The position numbers and the translations under genes were made by a program. A stretch of 31,138 nucleotides of DNA, from positions 1-31,138 of IMG/VR virus record IMGVR_UViG_3300021180_000040; one strand, given 5' to 3'. This DNA comes from a virus (lineage: Duplodnaviria; Caudoviricetes). Positions 3,653 through 31,138 of the stretch are shown piece by piece. Position 1 is the first letter of the stretch. Every line of letters starts with the position of its first letter. The notes under the pieces are model-generated. The model saw only the letters and a list, made by a program, of their open reading frames with translations. It was not told the origin of the DNA and ran no database searches.

Positions 3653-3882
3653 TGCCCAACATGCTCATCGACAAGCAAGTTTTTATCGAACACGCCCACA
3701 TGCTGGTCAACCCGTCTCAGGGAGAGCGGAAGTATGTCCTCCGCTTTATTCCGTCGGCACAACTCACGGTGCCGAAAGAGGTATTCGATGGGGTGGAAGT
3801 CGGTCGTGAGTATGCTATCACCCTCACAGATGCACCAATCAAGCGCAAGAGGTCCAGTGCGACCAGAAGGACGACCAAGTAA
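3652..3882 (+). CDS. Hypothetical protein
   Basis: AAGGAG RBS; TAATG coupling on both sides. Confidence 0.65.
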   Translation: MPNMLIDKQVFIEHAHMLVNPSQGERKYVLRFIPSAQLTVPKEVFDGVEVGREYAITLTDAPIKRKRSSATRRTTK

Positions 3883-5654
3883 TGCCGAGTTTGAACCCAA
3901 AGCAGATTGTCACCAAAGATGAATGCCACGCCGCCATCATGAAGGGCGTCGACGCCGTAGCCGATGTGGTTTCGATAACGTTGGGGCCGGGCGGAAGGAA
4001 TGTCCTGCTGGATGAAGGCCCGTTCCGGGAAGGCAGGTCCACGCGCGACGGTGTGACGGTAGCCAAGAAGATCGCCCTCTCCGACCCAATCGCCAATCTC
4101 GCCGCACAACTCGTCATTTCGGTTGCACGAAGGGCCGGTGACTCCGCCGGCGACGGCACCACGACCGCAACTGTCCTCGCCCAGGCCATCTACAAAGGCG
4201 GCGTCCGGCAGGTTGCGGCAGGTGCGAATCCTGTCGCCCTCAAGCGCGGCATCGATGCAGCCATCACGGCCATCGTCGGGACCAAGGACGAGAAGGGCAA
4301 CTACCAGGGCGGAACTTTGGCGCCGCTGATCCTGCCCGTCGAAGACCCCAATGTCATCGCCCAGGTCGGCACGCTGTCGGCCAACTCCGACCCCGACATC
4401 GGAAACATGATCGCCGCGGCCATTGCGCAGGTCGGCAAGGACGGCACGGTCACGGTCGAGGAATCGCAGTCGATGGAGACGACGCTCGATGTGGTCGAGG
4501 GCATGCAGTTCAATCAGGGGTATCTGTCGCCTTACTTCATCACCGATGGCGAGCGGATGGAGGCGATGCTTTCCGGGGATGATTCTGCGCCGGTGTTCCT
4601 GCTGCTCCACGAAAAGCGCCTCGTCTACCACACCGACCTTACGCCGGTAGCGACCATCGTGCATCAGGCGGGCGGAAGCCTTGTCGTGATCGCCGAAGAC
4701 ATCGCCGAGTCCGCGCTCGCATGGCTGGTGGTCAACCGGATGCAGGGCCGGTTCCGATCGATCGCAGTCAAGACCCCCGGCTTCGGCGACCGCAAGAAGG
4801 CGTTGCTCGATGACTTGGCCGTCCTGACCGGCGCAACCGTCATCAGCCCCGACCTCGGAATCAAGATGGAGTCGGTAACCCTCGGGATGCTGGGCCGGGC
4901 GAAGCGGGTGACGGTGACGAAGGATGACACGACCATCGTTGGCGGCATGGGCGACGAAACGATCCTGAATGGCCGGCGCAATGACCTTCGTGCTCAGATC
5001 GAGCGGACGACTTCGGACTACGACCGGGAGCGTCTGACCGAGCGGCTGGCGAAGTTGACGGGCGGGGTTGCAGTCGTCAAGGTTGGCGGCCAGACGGAAG
5101 CCGAGATGAAAGAGCGGAAGGATCGCGCCGAGGATGCGATGTACGCGACCCGGGCGGCTGTCGCTGAGGGTATCGTGCCTGGCGGCGGGACCGCGCTGAT
5201 CCTGGCGGTGGACTCGCATGCGTTCATGCAAGCGGCGATGAATGTGGCGAACGAGGATGAGTTGGCCGGATTCAGGATCGTTGCGAAGGCTTGCGAAGCG
5301 CCGTTGAAGCGGATCGTGTCGAATGCTGGCGGCGAAGGTGGCGAGATCGTGGCGGAGTTGCGTAGGCGAAAGGCGCACGTCAGGTCAGTCAAGACGGATA
5401 TTCCGTTGGAGCTTCGCCAAAACAACTTCTTCGGCTACAACGCCGCGACGCGAGAGTTTGAAGACCTACTCAAGTCTGGCGTCATAGACCCAGCCCGCGT
5501 GACCCGCACGGCATTGCAGGCGGCTGGCAGCATCGCAGGTCTCTTGCTGACCAATGAGGCTATCGTGGCCGATGACGTTGAGGCGGCGAGCGAGGTACGC
5601 AAGTCGCTGGTGCCGGTGATGCCCGGTGGCCAGCAGCAGATGTTGGGGTATTGA
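3882..5654 (+). CDS. groEL: Chaperonin GroEL (Cpn60)
   Basis: TLGPGGRNV, DGVTVAK, AGDGTTTATVLAQAI, VVEGMQF..GYLSPYF, PGFGDRKK, ERLAKLTGGVAV, EGIVPGGG and GVIDP motifs. Confidence 0.97.
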   Translation: MPSLNPKQIVTKDECHAAIMKGVDAVADVVSITLGPGGRNVLLDEGPFREGRSTRDGVTVAKKIALSDPIANLAAQLVISVARRAGDSAGDGTTTATVLAQAIYKGGVRQVAAGANPVALKRGIDAAITAIVGTKDEKGNYQGGTLAPLILPVEDPNVIAQVGTLSANSDPDIGNMIAAAIAQVGKDGTVTVEESQSMETTLDVVEGMQFNQGYLSPYFITDGERMEAMLSGDDSAPVFLLLHEKRLVYHTDLTPVATIVHQAGGSLVVIAEDIAESALAWLVVNRMQGRFRSIAVKTPGFGDRKKALLDDLAVLTGATVISPDLGIKMESVTLGMLGRAKRVTVTKDDTTIVGGMGDETILNGRRNDLRAQIERTTSDYDRERLTERLAKLTGGVAVVKVGGQTEAEMKERKDRAEDAMYATRAAVAEGIVPGGGTALILAVDSHAFMQAAMNVANEDELAGFRIVAKACEAPLKRIVSNAGGEGGEIVAELRRRKAHVRSVKTDIPLELRQNNFFGYNAATREFEDLLKSGVIDPARVTRTALQAAGSIAGLLLTNEAIVADDVEAASEVRKSLVPVMPGGQQQMLGY

Positions 5655-15944: not shown

Positions 15945-18185
15945 GTGACGTACAATCGCGCAGACCCGTACCTGGATCAAGGCATCACAGCCTTAGACCA
16001 GCGACTGCTAGAAGCAAAGAAGCAACTTCCAAAAGGTAGTGCGGAAGAGCAACGGGCGCTTGCGTGGCAATTCCTGTCTCCAGCGGAATCATCGTTCATT
16101 CAAGAGGAAATCGGACGATGTATAGAATCGCGCATCTACTACCTGAATAACTATCATGTCATTCAGACCGATCGCGGCATCCTCACATGCATGAATCCGC
16201 TCTTTGATCTTCAACTTATGGTTGAGGATGCCATTAGCACATCTGTTGCTGAAAATGGGCGGTCGTTTCTCGTTATCCTCAAGCCGCGCCAGTCGGGTAT
16301 CACCGAGTATTCTAACGGAGTCATGTGCTGGCGCACGTTCTTTCTGCCCAACGCCTTTACTCTCACCGTAGCGCAAGACCCGCCAACAGCGGCGTGGGTG
16401 CAGCGCAAGGTAAACGTGGCCTACGATAGGCTACCTTGGTGGATGCGGCCGGAAAGAATGTATCACAATCGTGGAGAGTACCTCGAATTCGGCAGGAAAG
16501 ATGAGACGATGCGCTCCTCCGATCCGGGTCTCGGCACAATTCTAGTTACGACGCACGCAATGCGCGATACCGGCGTTGCCATTGGCAAATCGATTCGCAG
16601 TCTTCATCTCACCGAAGTGTCGCGCTGGCCAAGTTCCGACCTATATGTCTCCGACATCAAGCCCACCATGAACGCGCCGGATACAATCGCCATCGCCGAG
16701 TCGACCGCGTGGGGGTCCAATGGATTCTTCTATAACCTATGGCAAGGGGCTAACGATCCAGAAGACGACGACGGCGACTGGAAGCCGCTGTTTCTCCCCG
16801 GCTATCGCGATGGCAAAAACCGCCGCATCATCCGGCCAAAGCAGCAGCCATTCATTCTGACCGACGCGGAGAAGAAAGTAACGACACGGGTCAAGATGGA
16901 GGAAGGTTTCGACATCCCGAATGAGTTCTGGAACTTCCGGCGCCGGGGAATGAAGGACTCGATCAAGGAGTCTGGATTCGCTTACGGCCACCTGGAATGC
17001 TTTCCCATCAGCCCGAGAGAAGCCTTTCAGTCCTCCGGCATGGGTGCCTTCGCTCGGCACAAGTTGGATGAGCAGGAGGCAAACGTCCGTAAGCCGAATT
17101 GGGTTGGAGAAATCATCTTCCAAGGTCGCGGCGTAGTTCCTAAAGTCCTCTTGGAATATATGATAGCCAAAGACGGAAGCTATCGGGATGTTAACCTGCC
17201 GCCGCGTGAGAGCGTAGGTGGAAGGCTGTATCTATGGGAGCAACCCGACCCCGGCAAGATTTACTATATCTCCGGCGATGCGGGCGAAGGCATCGGGCAA
17301 GACCCCAGCGTGGTCGAGATCATCCGTGCAGGGTTCCTCAATGAGCCGGATGTGCAGGTCGGAGAATGGGTCGGGTACGAGCCACCAGAGGCATTCGGGC
17401 GCATCGTGTACGCGATTGGCCACTACTTCAACCGGGCCGAGGTGGCAATCGAGTACAACGGCCCCGGCACTGCGACGGCAGACTATCTGATGAATCAGTT
17501 GGAGTACCCAAACCTCTACACGCCGCGCAATACGGACCGCGTGAAGAATCCATTTAAGCCCTTCCTCCACTGGCAGACCACGTCCAAGACGAAGCCATTG
17601 CTTCGCGCCAAGATGAACGAAACGTTGCTCGAAAATGGCATCATCATCCAGAGCGAGTACACGTTGGCAGAACTCCGGGCCTGCGAGGTAGAGGGTGAGT
17701 CATTCGCCGCGTTGGAAGGGCACGACGACGCCGCAATCTCGATATGCATCGGCCTATACTGTCTTCGCCAGACGATGCTCGAACTCCGCAGACCGGCGAC
17801 CGATGGAGACAAGACGGCGGGATCACCGGCCGTCCGCCACCTCCACCCCCCCGTCGGCGCAGTCATCTACGGCGTCTACGACCAATTATTCCGTCTGCGC
17901 GCCCAGAAGCGAACCTTACGCGAGGCCGAGGAAATCGTAGAGAAGAACCCCGGTTTCCAGATCAAACCGATCATGGTATCAAAGGCCAACACCGCATTTT
18001 CGGTCATCCATCACGGCCAGGGGATCGAGCGGGAGCTGTATCAGGCGGGCATGGTGGATCGCGACATCACGCCGGAGTTGGTTTCCCAGTACGGGATTGC
18101 GACTGGCCGGAACTATGGCGCGGCGAGCCCTGGGGCGGATGAATCGCTTTGGGATAGTTCGTTGGGCGACTTGGGCGATTTTTGA
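15945..18185 (+). CDS. terL: Terminase large subunit
   Basis: Walker A ILKPRQSGIT, Walker B LHLTEV, coupling motif ESTA; RNase H-like nuclease with ISGDAGEG, AIEYNGPG and HDDA. Confidence 0.93.
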   Translation: MTYNRADPYLDQGITALDQRLLEAKKQLPKGSAEEQRALAWQFLSPAESSFIQEEIGRCIESRIYYLNNYHVIQTDRGILTCMNPLFDLQLMVEDAISTSVAENGRSFLVILKPRQSGITEYSNGVMCWRTFFLPNAFTLTVAQDPPTAAWVQRKVNVAYDRLPWWMRPERMYHNRGEYLEFGRKDETMRSSDPGLGTILVTTHAMRDTGVAIGKSIRSLHLTEVSRWPSSDLYVSDIKPTMNAPDTIAIAESTAWGSNGFFYNLWQGANDPEDDDGDWKPLFLPGYRDGKNRRIIRPKQQPFILTDAEKKVTTRVKMEEGFDIPNEFWNFRRRGMKDSIKESGFAYGHLECFPISPREAFQSSGMGAFARHKLDEQEANVRKPNWVGEIIFQGRGVVPKVLLEYMIAKDGSYRDVNLPPRESVGGRLYLWEQPDPGKIYYISGDAGEGIGQDPSVVEIIRAGFLNEPDVQVGEWVGYEPPEAFGRIVYAIGHYFNRAEVAIEYNGPGTATADYLMNQLEYPNLYTPRNTDRVKNPFKPFLHWQTTSKTKPLLRAKMNETLLENGIIIQSEYTLAELRACEVEGESFAALEGHDDAAISICIGLYCLRQTMLELRRPATDGDKTAGSPAVRHLHPPVGAVIYGVYDQLFRLRAQKRTLREAEEIVEKNPGFQIKPIMVSKANTAFSVIHHGQGIERELYQAGMVDRDITPELVSQYGIATGRNYGAASPGADESLWDSSLGDLGDF

Positions 18186-19142: not shown

Positions 19143-21011
19143 ATGGCGACTCCCGCAATTCTCCGCCCCGGCAACCAGCCTCCACCCCCGGAGCGCATGA
19201 CGCGCGACTTGCCGCTTCCTTGGGACCGGCTTGAGCGCGACGTAGTCCAGTGGTCCGACACGGCATTCTCTCAGGCGAAGGAAAAGCAGGGTCAGCAGCC
19301 TTATTCCAAGCTCATCCCCCGAATCGTCCAGTATCTTTCCGGCAGCCAGTGGCCCGCCAGACCGACCGCCTACGGCAATTCCCGGCCCGTCACGAACCGC
19401 ATGTTCCGCCAATACTGGGAACTGGTTTCGCTCCTGACAGACGGCAAGCCGGAGCCGCAGATCAAGGTATACGACACCAAAGACGGTTACTCCGAAGTCC
19501 AGCGAATCATCGGCGAACTGCTCGAACCGTGGGGGGTAACGCCAGATTACCACGACGCATTGCAGGACATCATCGGCTTCGGCCTGTTGGCCTACGGCGT
19601 CGGCAAGGTTCAGTGGAACCCGCACCGGTCGGGCGGCATGGGCGACGTCGAATTGCTGGCGATCAACCCGCTTCAACTTTACAAACTCGGCGGCGATGGT
19701 CCTATCGAGAACTGCGAATGCCTGATCGAGACGCGCCAGGTGACGATTGAAGCCCTGCGGCGCCGCTATGGCGATGTGGCCAAACTGGTCAAGCCGGATA
19801 CCGGGGCAGACTCAAGCGCGCTCCGTCCGATGCGGCCATCTTCTGTTTCGTCGGAGCAATGGGGCAAGTTCTCGCCGCAGATGCAGCAGGTTTTGGGGGT
19901 CAAGGGCGGTCTTGGGGTCACGGATACGCTTTACCCAACCGTCGAGGAGCGCATCTTCTGGCTGCGGGATGGCGCGAAAAATGAGTCTTCGACGACAAAA
20001 CTGGTAGGCCGCAAGGGCGCGAACTGGTCGTACTGGGTCGAGCCGGGGATGCCGCTTTTCCCGAGGGGTCGATGCTTTTCGGTGGCCGGCGGTCGCGTCA
20101 TGGAGGATACCTGCAACCCCTACTTTCACAACATGGGGCCAGGGCCGTATGTCGAGTTCCTGCCGCTGCGCACTGCGTGGCTTTCGGGGTCGATGTCTGT
20201 TACCGGCAACCTCATCGGCCCGCAGGACATCCTGAACCGCCTCATGGCCGGGATGCTCGAAACGATCAAGGCCGGACTGACGCCGACGATCATCACCCCA
20301 ACCGATGCCGTGTCCCGATCTGACCTAGACAATCTGTCGACGACGATTTCGGGCGGAAAGATCGAGTATAACCCGCTCCGATCCGGCGGCCAGAGCCCCA
20401 AGTTCCGCGAGCAACCTCAGTTCCCGACCGCGGCGCAGTGGTATACCCAGATGCTCATGCGGGAGATGGACCAGACCACAGGTTCAGCGGCGATCGATGC
20501 GGCTGCGCAGAAGGAGCAGATTCCGTCGCACGACACGATGGAATTGATTCAGAATGCGCGCTCCGGCATGGTCCGGCTGATGGGAAGACGGCTCGAAAAC
20601 TTCATGAACCGATCCGGCCAGATGGTCGTCTCGAACATGCTCCAGTTCTATTCAATTGGCCATCGGACGGCGATTCTTGGCGAAAAGGGCATGACGTCGT
20701 GGGACTTCTCGCCGATGTATGGGTCGATGATTCAGGGCGGGATGCTGCCGGAGAAGTTCGTGCGCAAGTTCCAGTTCTCCATCCGGCCAGGGTCGGCGCT
20801 GTCGTTTGACCGGGAGCAGAGGGCGCAACTGGCCGTGACGCTTCAGCGCGGCGGACTGATTTCCAAAAAGAACGTGCTCAGAGCCCTGAATGCTGCCGGA
20901 GCCAATATCGATTTGGCCGAAAACGAGAAGGAAATGGCGGCGGAGGCACTCCAGCAGTTGGCAATGGCGGCGCTGGCCGGGCAGGCGGCTGGCAAGAAAG
21001 GAAAGAAGTGA
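19143..21011 (+). CDS. Portal protein
   Basis: 622 aa downstream of TerL; YLSGSQW, RPVTN, GVGKVQW and LIGPQDILNR resemble P22/SU10-like portals. Confidence 0.85.
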   Translation: MATPAILRPGNQPPPPERMTRDLPLPWDRLERDVVQWSDTAFSQAKEKQGQQPYSKLIPRIVQYLSGSQWPARPTAYGNSRPVTNRMFRQYWELVSLLTDGKPEPQIKVYDTKDGYSEVQRIIGELLEPWGVTPDYHDALQDIIGFGLLAYGVGKVQWNPHRSGGMGDVELLAINPLQLYKLGGDGPIENCECLIETRQVTIEALRRRYGDVAKLVKPDTGADSSALRPMRPSSVSSEQWGKFSPQMQQVLGVKGGLGVTDTLYPTVEERIFWLRDGAKNESSTTKLVGRKGANWSYWVEPGMPLFPRGRCFSVAGGRVMEDTCNPYFHNMGPGPYVEFLPLRTAWLSGSMSVTGNLIGPQDILNRLMAGMLETIKAGLTPTIITPTDAVSRSDLDNLSTTISGGKIEYNPLRSGGQSPKFREQPQFPTAAQWYTQMLMREMDQTTGSAAIDAAAQKEQIPSHDTMELIQNARSGMVRLMGRRLENFMNRSGQMVVSNMLQFYSIGHRTAILGEKGMTSWDFSPMYGSMIQGGMLPEKFVRKFQFSIRPGSALSFDREQRAQLAVTLQRGGLISKKNVLRALNAAGANIDLAENEKEMAAEALQQLAMAALAGQAAGKKGKK

Positions 21012-24095: not shown

Positions 24096-25082
24096 ATGCC
24101 AGCAACCGGCAATCAGACCATTTACAACGATCTCACGACATTCACTTACCAGTGGATCGTGCCTCGGGTGCAGGATGTCTATTTCAAGGTGTCGACGATC
24201 TTCCCGATCCTCTTCCGGCCCGACAACTTCAAGACCTTTTCCGGCTACCAGATCCAGGTGCCGATCCAGTACGCGCCTCTCAAGGGCGGTCCGACGGTCG
24301 ATGGCGGCGTGTTCGACATCTCGTCCTTCGAGACCGACACGGCGATGATCTTCGTGCCCAAGGAGTACTACACCAACGTCACTCTGAGCCGCCAGCGCAT
24401 CGCCCTCAACCAGGGCAACCAGGCCGCGATGAGCTACGTGCAGGTGAAGGTCACGAACCTTTACCAGTCGATGATGCAGTATCTGGCGCAGGACACCTTC
24501 CGCGATGGTCAGGGAACGGTCTCCGGCGTCAACGCTCTCGACGGCCTGCTTGCCGCGAACGACGATGGCACGAACTATCCGCAGTATGGCCAGTTGGCCC
24601 GCGCTGCGATCGGCACCGGCCCCAACGCCGGAATCGACGGCTACTACCAGAGCGTCAATGCGCCAATCTCGACACAGTTGCTCCAGTTCGCTTTCGGTCA
24701 GGGCAGCTTCGGTAACACGCAGCCCAATCTGGCGTTCATGACGCAGAATATCTGGGATACGATGTGGCTTCGCATGTTCCCGGCGCAGCGCGTGATGGAT
24801 GACGATCCGGGCGTGATCAGTTTCGGCGCCACTTCGCTCAAGTTCTACGGCAACAAGCGGCTTCTGGTCGATCAGTACATCCCGACCGGCTATGTCTTCG
24901 GCAACCGCGACGAATTCCTGCAAGCCTACGTGACCGAAGACAAGCTGTTCCAGTTCGGCTTCACCGGGTTCAAGGAACTGCCGGATTCGCTCGACGGTTC
25001 TGGTCAGACGGTCTTCCTCGGGGATATCGTCAACGCCCAGCCCCGCGTCAGCTTCATTCTGGCGAACGTGCAGAACACCTAA
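24096..25082 (+). CDS. Major capsid protein (HK97-fold type)
   Basis: 328 aa with strong codon bias and AGGAGG RBS; GYQIQVPIQY, KEYYTNVTL, DGQG...LDGL...YGQLAR, P.LAFMT and LLVDQYIP.G; follows portal and scaffold. Confidence 0.88.
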   Translation: MPATGNQTIYNDLTTFTYQWIVPRVQDVYFKVSTIFPILFRPDNFKTFSGYQIQVPIQYAPLKGGPTVDGGVFDISSFETDTAMIFVPKEYYTNVTLSRQRIALNQGNQAAMSYVQVKVTNLYQSMMQYLAQDTFRDGQGTVSGVNALDGLLAANDDGTNYPQYGQLARAAIGTGPNAGIDGYYQSVNAPISTQLLQFAFGQGSFGNTQPNLAFMTQNIWDTMWLRMFPAQRVMDDDPGVISFGATSLKFYGNKRLLVDQYIPTGYVFGNRDEFLQAYVTEDKLFQFGFTGFKELPDSLDGSGQTVFLGDIVNAQPRVSFILANVQNT

Positions 25083-27945: not shown

Positions 27946-28590
27946 TCAATCTTTCTGAATCTCAAACTTCGTCACGTTGAACCTGCCGTATGTCGGCCGG
28001 AAATCACCAACGCCAATGAGTCGGCCGGCAGACCCAACCACTTCAAGCAAATCGGCGGGGCTGATGTACTCCGGAAGGTTCACCATGAGCGTTACCTCAC
28101 ACCGCCATCCTTCACGGAAAGCCGGACGGCAGCGAGTGATGCCGTTTCTCTGAATTTGAACGCGGCATCGATGCTCGTAGTCCCAAGCCGTCGGCAGTTC
28201 ACCAGCAACCGTAGTGATCGGCGACAAGGGGCGCAGGGAGACTACCGCAGCCTTGAAAAGATCCATCGCGCTCTTGCGCGGGCTACGCGGGTCTTGTCGG
28301 AACTTCGCGGCACCAATGACGCTCATACGCAGATACTCGGATGGCAGGCAGATGACGCCGTCATCGTTGCGCTTCACGTAGGACTCCAAGTTGTCTGATT
28401 TCTTCGCTGCCGAGCCCTTCTTCGAATCGGCCTTTTCTTGGACTGCTTCGCAGTTCCAAGCGTGCAGCAGCAAGTCTGCTGTGCCTTCGATGGTTACGTG
28501 TGCGATAAACGGCAATCCGGTTTCGATTGCCTCTCGTGCGCCGTTCGTCGGCTCACTGATTGCTGTTGCTGTTCCGTTATTCCTTGCCAT
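27946..28590 (-). CDS. Stand-alone Cas7/Csm3-like RAMP-superfamily protein
   Basis: First strand VTIEGTADLLLH; ICLPSEYLRMSVIGAA (equivalent to the RAMP IPGSSxKG helix); thumb region RVQIQRNGITRCRP; C-terminal Gly-rich loop AGRLIGVGDFRPTYGRFNV; AAGGAG RBS (start 28590 or 28593). Confidence 0.8.
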   Translation of the reverse strand: MARNNGTATAISEPTNGAREAIETGLPFIAHVTIEGTADLLLHAWNCEAVQEKADSKKGSAAKKSDNLESYVKRNDDGVICLPSEYLRMSVIGAAKFRQDPRSPRKSAMDLFKAAVVSLRPLSPITTVAGELPTAWDYEHRCRVQIQRNGITRCRPAFREGWRCEVTLMVNLPEYISPADLLEVVGSAGRLIGVGDFRPTYGRFNVTKFEIQKD

Positions 28591-28608
28591 CATTCTCTCC
28601 TTGAATTT

Positions 28609-30071: not shown

Positions 30072-30761
30072 ATGGCGCTTACCTCCACAATCGCCGAGAT
30101 GGCCCCATCCGTAAGCGAGCGGTTGCAGGATGACTCGAATATTTTCTGGAGCCTCGACTATGAAATAAATGCGGGGCTTGCGGAGGCGATTTCCGAGCTA
30201 CTTCTCATCGTCGGAAGGCCAACCCAAATCTTCGATCAGCCCATTACGCCGCTGGTCAACACCTGCTTTAACCCCATGCCGCCCGGCCTGATATGTCTCA
30301 CCAACATTCGCACGCAGATTTCGGTTTTGGGTAAGACGACGCTGCGGAGCCTCGACTATCTCTGCTCGTCGTGGTCGCCAGCATGGCAGTCTGAGCGCGG
30401 GGCTATTCCGAAGCGATGGGCTCCCTTGGGCCTGAATTACTTCATCCTGCATCCGGCTCCGCTCCAGCCGATTACGATCAACGTGACCGGGATCGCGTAC
30501 CCGTTCGTCGATACCTGGCCGCCGAATGGGACGGAGAGCAGCCCGTTCGCGAAGGAATTTAATCAGGCTTTGGAGCTGTATGCGGCGAGCTACGCGAGGT
30601 TGAAAGAGTGCGGCGAGGACGCAGCCGAAGGGTTTGCTCTCTATCAGCAATTCCTCGAAATCGGCCAGCGCCTCTCGCAGATTGAAGATCGCCGCGATAG
30701 TCTCGTGTGGTGCCGATCTTTCGGCGCAGCCACGGCTCCCTCGCAAGTTGCGCACCGCTAA
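30072..30761 (+). CDS. Putative head-tail connector or adaptor protein
   Basis: RLQD...FWS...I...LAEA.....L...P N-terminus, FILHPAP and ALELYAA...A...YQQF resemble phage adaptor proteins. Confidence 0.6.
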   Translation: MALTSTIAEMAPSVSERLQDDSNIFWSLDYEINAGLAEAISELLLIVGRPTQIFDQPITPLVNTCFNPMPPGLICLTNIRTQISVLGKTTLRSLDYLCSSWSPAWQSERGAIPKRWAPLGLNYFILHPAPLQPITINVTGIAYPFVDTWPPNGTESSPFAKEFNQALELYAASYARLKECGEDAAEGFALYQQFLEIGQRLSQIEDRRDSLVWCRSFGAATAPSQVAHR

Positions 30762-30798
30762 ATCGTTCATGATACGATGTAAGCCATTGGAGAACCGC

Positions 30799-31077
30799 AT
30801 GTCCTTGTCTCGCAGGGGATTCTTTCGTGGGCTGTTTGGAGCGGGAGCCGCCGCTGTGCTGGCTCCGGTCGTGAAGTTGATTGGCAAGCCGGGTGTGACC
30901 CTGTTTAAGGCCCAGCAGATTGGGGTTTCTACTGCCCCGTATCAGTTCGGCTTCACTGGCTGGAAGTATCTTGACGAAAGCTCCGTTGTCCGTCCGCTTT
31001 CAGAATTGAGCTTTGAGCCGAAGTTGTATTACGTGAACGTCCTCCTCGAAAAGCCGGGATCGGCGGAGGCTAACTGA
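30799..31077 (+). CDS. Twin-arginine-signal protein carrying capsid-like and terminase-like peptide motifs
   Basis: GGAG RBS; MSLSRRGFFRGLFGAGAAAVLAP Tat-type signal, then KAQQIGVST, QFGFTGWK and FEPKLYYVNVLL. Confidence 0.72.
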   Translation: MSLSRRGFFRGLFGAGAAAVLAPVVKLIGKPGVTLFKAQQIGVSTAPYQFGFTGWKYLDESSVVRPLSELSFEPKLYYVNVLLEKPGSAEAN

Positions 31078-31138
31078 TGGAAATCTCTGTCACCGCAGAA
31101 CCTGTCCCGCTGGACGAATCCCTTTTGGAAGCCGCTCA
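31077..31138 (+). CDS. Partial hypothetical protein (3' truncated)
   Basis: GGAGG RBS and TGATG coupling; MEISVTAEPVPLDESLLEAA... runs off the window. Confidence 0.5.
   Translation, partial: MEISVTAEPVPLDESLLEAA

Follow-up and report, generated by a model that had tools for sequence, protein, structure and literature searches.

A small tailed-phage gene sets capsid-like segments behind a twin-arginine-like leader and may encode a decoy for host sensors

Among the main triggers of bacterial immunity are the capsid and the terminase, neither of which a phage can easily alter. On the host side, Avs7, Avs8 and Avs10 sense the capsid (PMC13581612), Avs2 and Upx sense the terminase, with Upx modelled on unfolded ATPase strands including beta-1 (PMC13601566), and Lit becomes active in response to Gol, a linear peptide of the T4 capsid protein gp23 (PMC12926258). 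On the phage side, T7 Ocr and an RNA mimic of ToxI imitate a molecule that is bound by a defence system (PMC12926258). Here, we describe a small gene (the mini-gene) in IMG/VR record IMGVR_UViG_3300021180_000040, of which positions 1 to 31,138 were analysed (31,138 nucleotides, referred to as the window), a tailed-phage fragment with large terminase (TerL), portal and major capsid protein (Table 1). Its product, the mini, carries two capsid-like segments and a degenerate Walker-A-like block behind a twin-arginine-like leader, and from our point of view it is possible, though far from assured, that this optional protein represents a putative decoy for host sensors of capsid and terminase peptides.

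In kind, Gol resembles the pieces of the mini in being a linear capsid peptide, one to which host defence responds; it is, however, part of a real capsid and activates the defence, whereas the pieces of the mini have a gene of their own, which puts an export-like leader in front of them. The Avs proteins and Upx detect the very protein classes that the mini copies, but they are host sensors and not decoys, the Avs proteins need folded targets, and the available portions of the cited accounts contain no decoy of this kind. Ocr and the ToxI mimic, which imitate a defence-bound molecule as proposed for the mini, copy DNA or a host antitoxin, whereas the mini copies phage structural motifs and adds a targeting leader. 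With the HK97-fold capsid (phrog_9953/NF033394) the mini shares two 14-residue segments (9 and 8 identical residues), but these amount to <10% of the capsid, stand in reversed order, form no fold and stem from two capsid lineages; of the full-length HK97 fold, capsid residues 86-99 and 285-298 alone were matched. Like the signal peptides for twin-arginine translocation (Tat) (PF10518; feature set from PMC6708511), the leader has S-R-R-x-F-F, a weak 15-residue hydrophobic stretch and a basic residue, but it lies under the Pfam cut-off, has no NCBIfam match and lacks a clear cleavage site, and whereas Tat substrates carry a folded enzyme, the cargo of the mini is a predicted unfolded mosaic. In the full-text literature, where subscription journals are largely uncovered, no description of this design was found.

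An earlier note on this DNA had proposed that the mini is built from three fragments of the phage's own capsid and terminase, and its coordinates and match counts all held on rechecking. QFGFTGWK agrees with capsid residues 286-293 at 7 of 8 amino acids and includes an identical run of 14 nucleotides, FEPKLYYVNVLL agrees with residues 86-97 at 8 of 12, and the two pieces stand in reverse order relative to the capsid protein. The likeness to the capsid beats chance: with either protein shuffled, the top ungapped segment score of 50 was reached in 1/5000 shuffles and the second segment score of 42 in 0/5000, and 42 as a lone best segment was reached in 34-35/5000. Among the 26 window proteins the capsid supplied the two best scores, the remaining 25 all scoring ≤34, and BLASTP of the mini against the capsid returned expectation values (E) of 0.002 and 0.005. 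A hidden Markov model (HMM) of the capsid family, run on 610 six-frame open reading frames (ORFs) of the window, found the mini as the sole non-capsid match under E 1 (E 6e-4).

The two modules have different sources. Module A, which ranks 4th in conservation among the 321 8-mers of an alignment of 97 capsids, is identical at 9/9 positions to sister-clade capsids (six loci), which are ~41% identical to the own capsid, and at 7/9 to the own capsid, while module B, whose capsid region is modelled as the strand preceding the long backbone helix, fits the own capsid clade best (8/12). The mini is thus a mosaic across lineages and not a fresh copy, so that the description of the fragments as the phage's own is too simple; the Walker-A block, too, is closest to other terminases. 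Where the mini agrees with the capsid of its phage in amino acid, 9/17 codons are the same, with 8.3 expected from window usage and 10.7 from capsid usage, and since this is no more than usage predicts, the 14 identical nucleotides do not indicate that DNA was copied recently. A recent duplication from the own capsid was therefore rejected, and the codons are not closer to any other aligned capsid locus either. When six mini-capsid pairs were pooled, 43/98 codons were the same (47.8 expected), with proportions of synonymous and non-synonymous differences of 0.66 (pS) and 0.32 (pN), the latter being pushed down by construction through the selection of best segments. Protein likeness hence outlasts codon likeness in these pairs.

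The mini belongs to a family in which the modules are reshuffled. Sequence searches gave three relatives (four proteins at 90% clustering), and 12 hits emerged when 1.84 billion representatives were searched with a profile; the family as used here has 11 members, the window protein and ten relatives, after a 491-residue repeat (P0132) and a leader-only hit had been dropped. P0131, L001 and L018 were set aside for having the leader alone in common, and L017 and L020-L023 as shadow frames or unrelated. Scanning metagenomes yielded this contig and L017 and nothing else, and tblastn of the window protein among 50,697 GenBank phages found no relative. With regard to the conservation of the motifs among homologues, on which the earlier proposal depended, the leader is common to all 11 members, the Walker-A-like block is present in 8/11 and the capsid match in 10/11, the latter beating 1000/1000 shuffles against a 97-sequence capsid profile (the score of the remaining member, P0133, was reached by 28/1000). 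The capsid segments comprise residues 22-45, 71-100, 183-210 or 283-299, alone or combined, i.e. four capsid regions; the query profile contained some of these modules and so favours hits bearing them, but no row of the query had the 22-45 module of P0127 aligned. When the family profile was compared with that of the capsid, the probability was 95.8% (E 7.5e-9). Two additional minis, in L166 and L168, have their own capsid in view, match it in 0/1000 shuffles and lie within the late cluster, where their start and stop codons overlap with others. Furthermore, capsid Gly201, invariant in 97/97 capsids, is Ala in 5/5 minis with that module, so that inheritance of modules among minis follows. Modules from portal, scaffold or tail proteins (12 profiles) gave none that was convincing, only isolated weak hits, such as P0003 against the gene after the capsid (1/300 shuffles) and L168 against p25860 (3/300). 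A search for shorter proteins holding capsid residues 60-110 returned P0005 alone (129 residues, 80% identical over the whole region).

The gene is an optional one. It is absent from this site in 9/9 related phages that cover it, and the family profile matched the capsid gene alone in 10 related records, 5 of which are at least 90% complete and one of which is the same phage and stops short of the mini site.

For the terminase, the picture differs between the window protein and its relatives. The earlier note had considered LFKAQQIGVST similar to the Walker A motif of the own TerL, its weakest match; taken alone, this likeness was rejected as no better than shuffles, the best TerL segment being reached in 642/5000, the Walker A segment scoring 25, which is below the shuffle mean, and BLAST of the window protein not reporting the motif. 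No ATPase domain was found around the block, and the mini does not qualify as a large terminase. Among the relatives, the block takes the form K-x-R/Q-x-x-G-x-x-T and seven keep the Walker A Arg. A matrix of the eight block instances ranked the Walker A of the window TerL 1st of 7427 positions in 34 proteins, a top score reached by 1/200 column-shuffled matrices, although this ranking is partly post hoc in that the motif was chosen with TerL in mind. A degenerate DNA pattern of the relatives' motif had one match in the viral collection, inside a real large terminase (hhalign E 1.6e-4, probability 50%). On 17,925 frames of 89 loci, with hits accepted up to E 10, the family profile found 20 frames other than capsids, namely 12 terminases at Walker A, two minis and six others, with several of the 12 near-identical and 51 terminase-like frames in total. 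Finally, a 45-sequence TerL profile matched the Walker A region in 4/13 minis (at most 4/300 shuffles), the window protein not among them. Taken together, the relatives alone lend support to the terminase motif, which we regard as supported at the family level. The concatenation of capsid and terminase motifs behind a leader thus stands for the capsid in the window itself and for the terminase in the family only. As a separate observation, P0127 and P0129 end in F-x-P-K-x-Y-S-M, C-terminal to the Walker-A block, a motif that fits the capsid and a terminase motif ~20 residues past Walker A alike. The frame common to the family may go back to a piece of terminase in which capsid pieces were swapped in.

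The design is not confined to this capsid family. A scan for the leader alone gave 111 viral loci, from which 53 unique closed ORFs of 50-175 residues with flanking DNA formed the tested set; duplicates, ORFs outside this length range, two that did not fit the pattern and 31 loci lacking flanks were excluded. Of these 53, five matched a protein within 10 kb at 0/200 shuffles, and all five targets were major head proteins, one being a protease-head fusion and one a weak match (E 4e-4); at least one locus, L066, has a capsid gene in view yet no leader-ORF match. As controls, 157 small ORFs without the leader from 45 of the loci were used, of which four passed, one with a capsid target. The enrichment of structural-protein matches among small leader proteins that the earlier note had suggested looking for was thus found, with a Fisher p of 0.047 when matches of all kinds are counted and of 0.004 when the count is limited to capsids (5/53 vs 1/157). 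When six minis were tested against six capsids, each scored best with the capsid of its phage, once narrowly. The leader-plus-capsid design recurs in unrelated capsid families. Six leader-selected ORFs had weak PHROG hits (E 2e-5 to 3e-3) to virion structural, head-tail adaptor, scaffolding and major head families (L051 2739-3008, L098 10001-10270, L058 6470-6892, L075 9658-10023, L042 65-394 and L076 143-439), and the cargo of the leader may extend beyond capsid and terminase.

A cultured example exists as well. The sole GenBank phage hits of one relative were the head proteins of Tunturi_1 and Tunturi_2, and Tunturi_1 gp97 has a closely similar leader followed by a copy of residues 4-56 of the Tunturi_1 capsid (0/2000 shuffles), with 4/19 same codons where 10.8 are expected. 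Tunturi_2 carries the same leader-plus-capsid mini. A term search of the main text of the paper on these phages (PMC11924767) found no twin-arginine, Tat, gp97 or signal peptide. Tunturi_1 is a phage of the Acidobacteriota, and six of the seven genome loci of the window's capsid family lie in four Acidobacteriota bins, binning not being proof of the host; TatC was found in 4/4 of these bins. The pair of Tunturi_1 and Tunturiibacter psychrotolerans X5P2 represents a testable system.

Table 1. Coordinates of the mini-gene, its parts, their counterparts in the window and the cultured example
Feature	Position	Strand	Remark
Mini-gene, 92 aa	30799..31077	+	Optional insertion, late gene cluster
Ribosome-binding site GGAGA	30789..30793	+	5 nt upstream of ATG; from sequence
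Twin-arginine-like leader	30799..30876	+	SRRGFFR, 15 uncharged residues, then Lys26; predicted helix 6-28
Degenerate Walker A block in mini	30901..30933	+	Chance-level alone; family-level support
Capsid module A	30940..30981	+	Matches capsid residues 285-298 (24948-24989)
Capsid module B	31012..31053	+	Matches capsid residues 86-99 (24351-24392)
Major capsid protein, HK97 fold	24096..25082	+	phrog_9953; NF033394 above cut-off; Foldseek to HK97-type capsids; model
Large terminase (TerL)	15945..18185	+	phrog_2; T4 gp17 nuclease match
TerL Walker A	16275-16304	+	Named by eye, aligned with Table 1 of PMC6379665
Portal	19143-21011		
Tunturi_1 gp97, annotated hypothetical	PP887698.1 59906-60217 = L221 28407-28718		Leader + own-capsid mini

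With regard to the leader, SRRGFFR conforms to S/T-R-R-x-F-L/F, with RR and the Phe at +4 invariant in 11/11 members of a family that was, however, gathered partly by its leader. In the window protein the h-region is weakly hydrophobic and unbroken, with a basic residue behind it; a Lys interrupts this stretch in 5/11 members. PF10518 matches 7/11 members weakly (best E 0.036) and gives the window protein 13.2 bits against a cut-off of 22.7, and a signal-peptidase AxA beyond the h-region is seen in P0002 and not in the window protein. The Tat signal postulated by the earlier note thus has the motif and the h-region, but neither a Pfam score above the cut-off nor a clear cleavage site. A folded passenger, as would be expected of a Tat substrate, is not predicted either: AlphaFold2, run with 11 sequences, gave a mean predicted local distance difference test (pLDDT) of 52.7, a predicted template-modelling score (pTM) of 0.14 and coil beyond residue 28, and ESM a pTM of 0.21. 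An ESM structure search returned nothing above a template-modelling (TM) score of 0.42, and the ESM feature matches at 0.92 and 0.91 were to unnamed clusters. No family match was found for the mini in PHROG, Pfam (E 0.05) or NCBIfam (E 1), and the PADLOC defence models matched none of the 11 members at E 0.1. The TGA stop of the mini-gene overlaps the ATG of the downstream gene and a search of 30500-31138 found no sigma-70-type promoter; from its position, late expression coupled to the neighbouring genes would be expected.

How could such a protein serve the phage? The reading as a decoy is favoured by the derivation of its pieces from both protein classes known to be sensed. The leader is followed by a chain, predicted to be unfolded, of conserved capsid segments and a Walker-A-like segment that has decayed; this chain would bind sensors that recognise capsid or terminase peptides but leave them inactive, and the leader would keep the bound sensors at the membrane or pass them on to the Tat translocase. 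We infer the targeting to membrane or Tat, the binding of sensors and the rescue of the phage from the arrangement of the parts. Avs sensors, which the earlier note had named for the terminase, do recognise the right protein classes; those that sense the capsid, however, need a folded surface that unfolded pieces are unlikely to rebuild, which argues against an Avs partner. A better fit would be a sensor that responds to linear peptides or to strands that are unfolded.

A number of points weigh against the decoy. What the capsid-sensing Avs proteins recognise is a broad surface of the folded protein with the A-domain at its centre (PMC13581612), and two 14-residue pieces cannot be assumed to rebuild it. 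Tat usually refuses unfolded cargo with hydrophobic stretches (PMC6708511). The copy in the window has Gln in place of the Walker A arginine and is at chance level, no more than 5/53 leader-selected ORFs match within 10 kb, and some of the copied regions are not highly conserved, modules ranking 104/317 (module B) and 150/308. Codon saturation would also be expected if the pieces came from other phages, and the sole mini-mini DNA pair, L166/L168, differs by 4 synonymous and 8 non-synonymous changes (within the module 3 and 1, a weak signal).

It is, however, unlikely that the minis are long-lived recombination debris, in which a leader with a good translation start captured bits of late genes that are tolerated by removal from the cytoplasm, with a likeness that is unselected. 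The optional, patchy and rare occurrence (two further minis in 89 capsid-centred loci), the missing fold, module joints that lie, by eye, at shared short motifs, the excess of non-synonymous changes in the L166/L168 pair and the existence of leaderless capsid-like small ORFs would all be consistent with it. Against it, the pieces have remained in frame and recognisable despite synonymous saturation, 5/5 significant targets are major head proteins and not random genes, and the derived Ala shared by the minis shows modules to be inherited. As to the leaderless ORFs, those resembling segments of the own capsid are L174 4288-4731, L175 69-512, L176 5419-5667, L184 4358-4690, L006 3441-3668 (-) and L208 763-1179, at 0-1/1000 shuffles but chosen from the 17,925 frames at HMM E 0.12-5.6 and hence leads only; a 108-residue leaderless ORF like its own P22-type major head protein, L066 6379-6705 (-), comes from the control set. 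Phages of this capsid family also encode a second small protein with a twin-arginine leader and Cys/His motifs, without capsid likeness (L165 2731-3057, L173 3332-3658 and L174 2012-2338).

An assembly inhibitor or exclusion factor, whose capsid strands would slot into newly made capsid monomers of related competitor phages and divert these monomers to the membrane, appears quite unlikely to us. The exact match of module A to the sister clade is what one would expect of it, the copied pieces are modelled as strands and helices of the capsid core, and Tat can co-export bound partners (PMC4273604), but the own capsid is the best match in 6/6 mini-capsid pairs, expression from the late cluster would poison the phage's own assembly, and a Walker A piece of 10 residues offers no clear way to inhibit the terminase. 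Very unlikely is also a role in which the leader itself works, by jamming the Tat translocase or disturbing the membrane late, with the cargo as filler: conservation is highest in the leader (RR, Phe, Leu and Gly in 11/11, in a search that selected for it), most leader-selected ORFs have no nearby structural match and the hydrophobic stretch is broken by Lys in nearly half of the members, yet the enrichment of capsid motifs and their persistence would be left unexplained. That the exported pieces serve as an alarm or priming signal, which triggers capsid and terminase defences in a lysogen against superinfection or in neighbour cells, is hardly probable, for although the choice of targets would be the same as for a decoy, linear triggers such as the Gol peptide exist and the capsid family occurs within bacterial genome bins, the gene lies in the late cluster with structural genes and not in a lysogeny region, no sigma-70-type promoter was found in 30500-31138, and the known sensors are cytoplasmic.

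If the decoy is extended to the family, phages might keep a combinatorial library in which the most conserved capsid and terminase motifs of the own and sister lineages are joined to a twin-arginine leader; sensors would bind such a decoy and be pulled to the membrane or exported via Tat. We consider this extension rather doubtful. If true, the lists of modules would be a readout of the linear phage epitopes seen by bacterial immunity, each module leading to an epitope and its sensor, and genes that display conserved motifs apart from their proteins would constitute a new form of counter-defence. Even with another function, the repeated capture and reshuffling of capsid and terminase motifs behind one leader is a route of gene birth not described so far. 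New here are the family-level terminase evidence, the cross-clade source of a module, the inheritance of modules, the control set and the cultured pair.

Several neighbouring genes may be recorded in addition. The window encodes a GroES-like protein of 203 residues with additional sequence (2107-2718) and a phage-encoded GroEL (3882-5654), and a reverse-strand gene within the late cluster (27946-28593 (-), phrog_4652, unknown function) occupies the interval where L166 and L168 hold their mini. In a related phage, the terminase matches as two pieces ~1.1 kb apart (L005 74-3475), possibly owing to an intron or intein, and L019 5027-8560 is a portal-like ORF of 1177 residues with, by eye, two apparent inteins.
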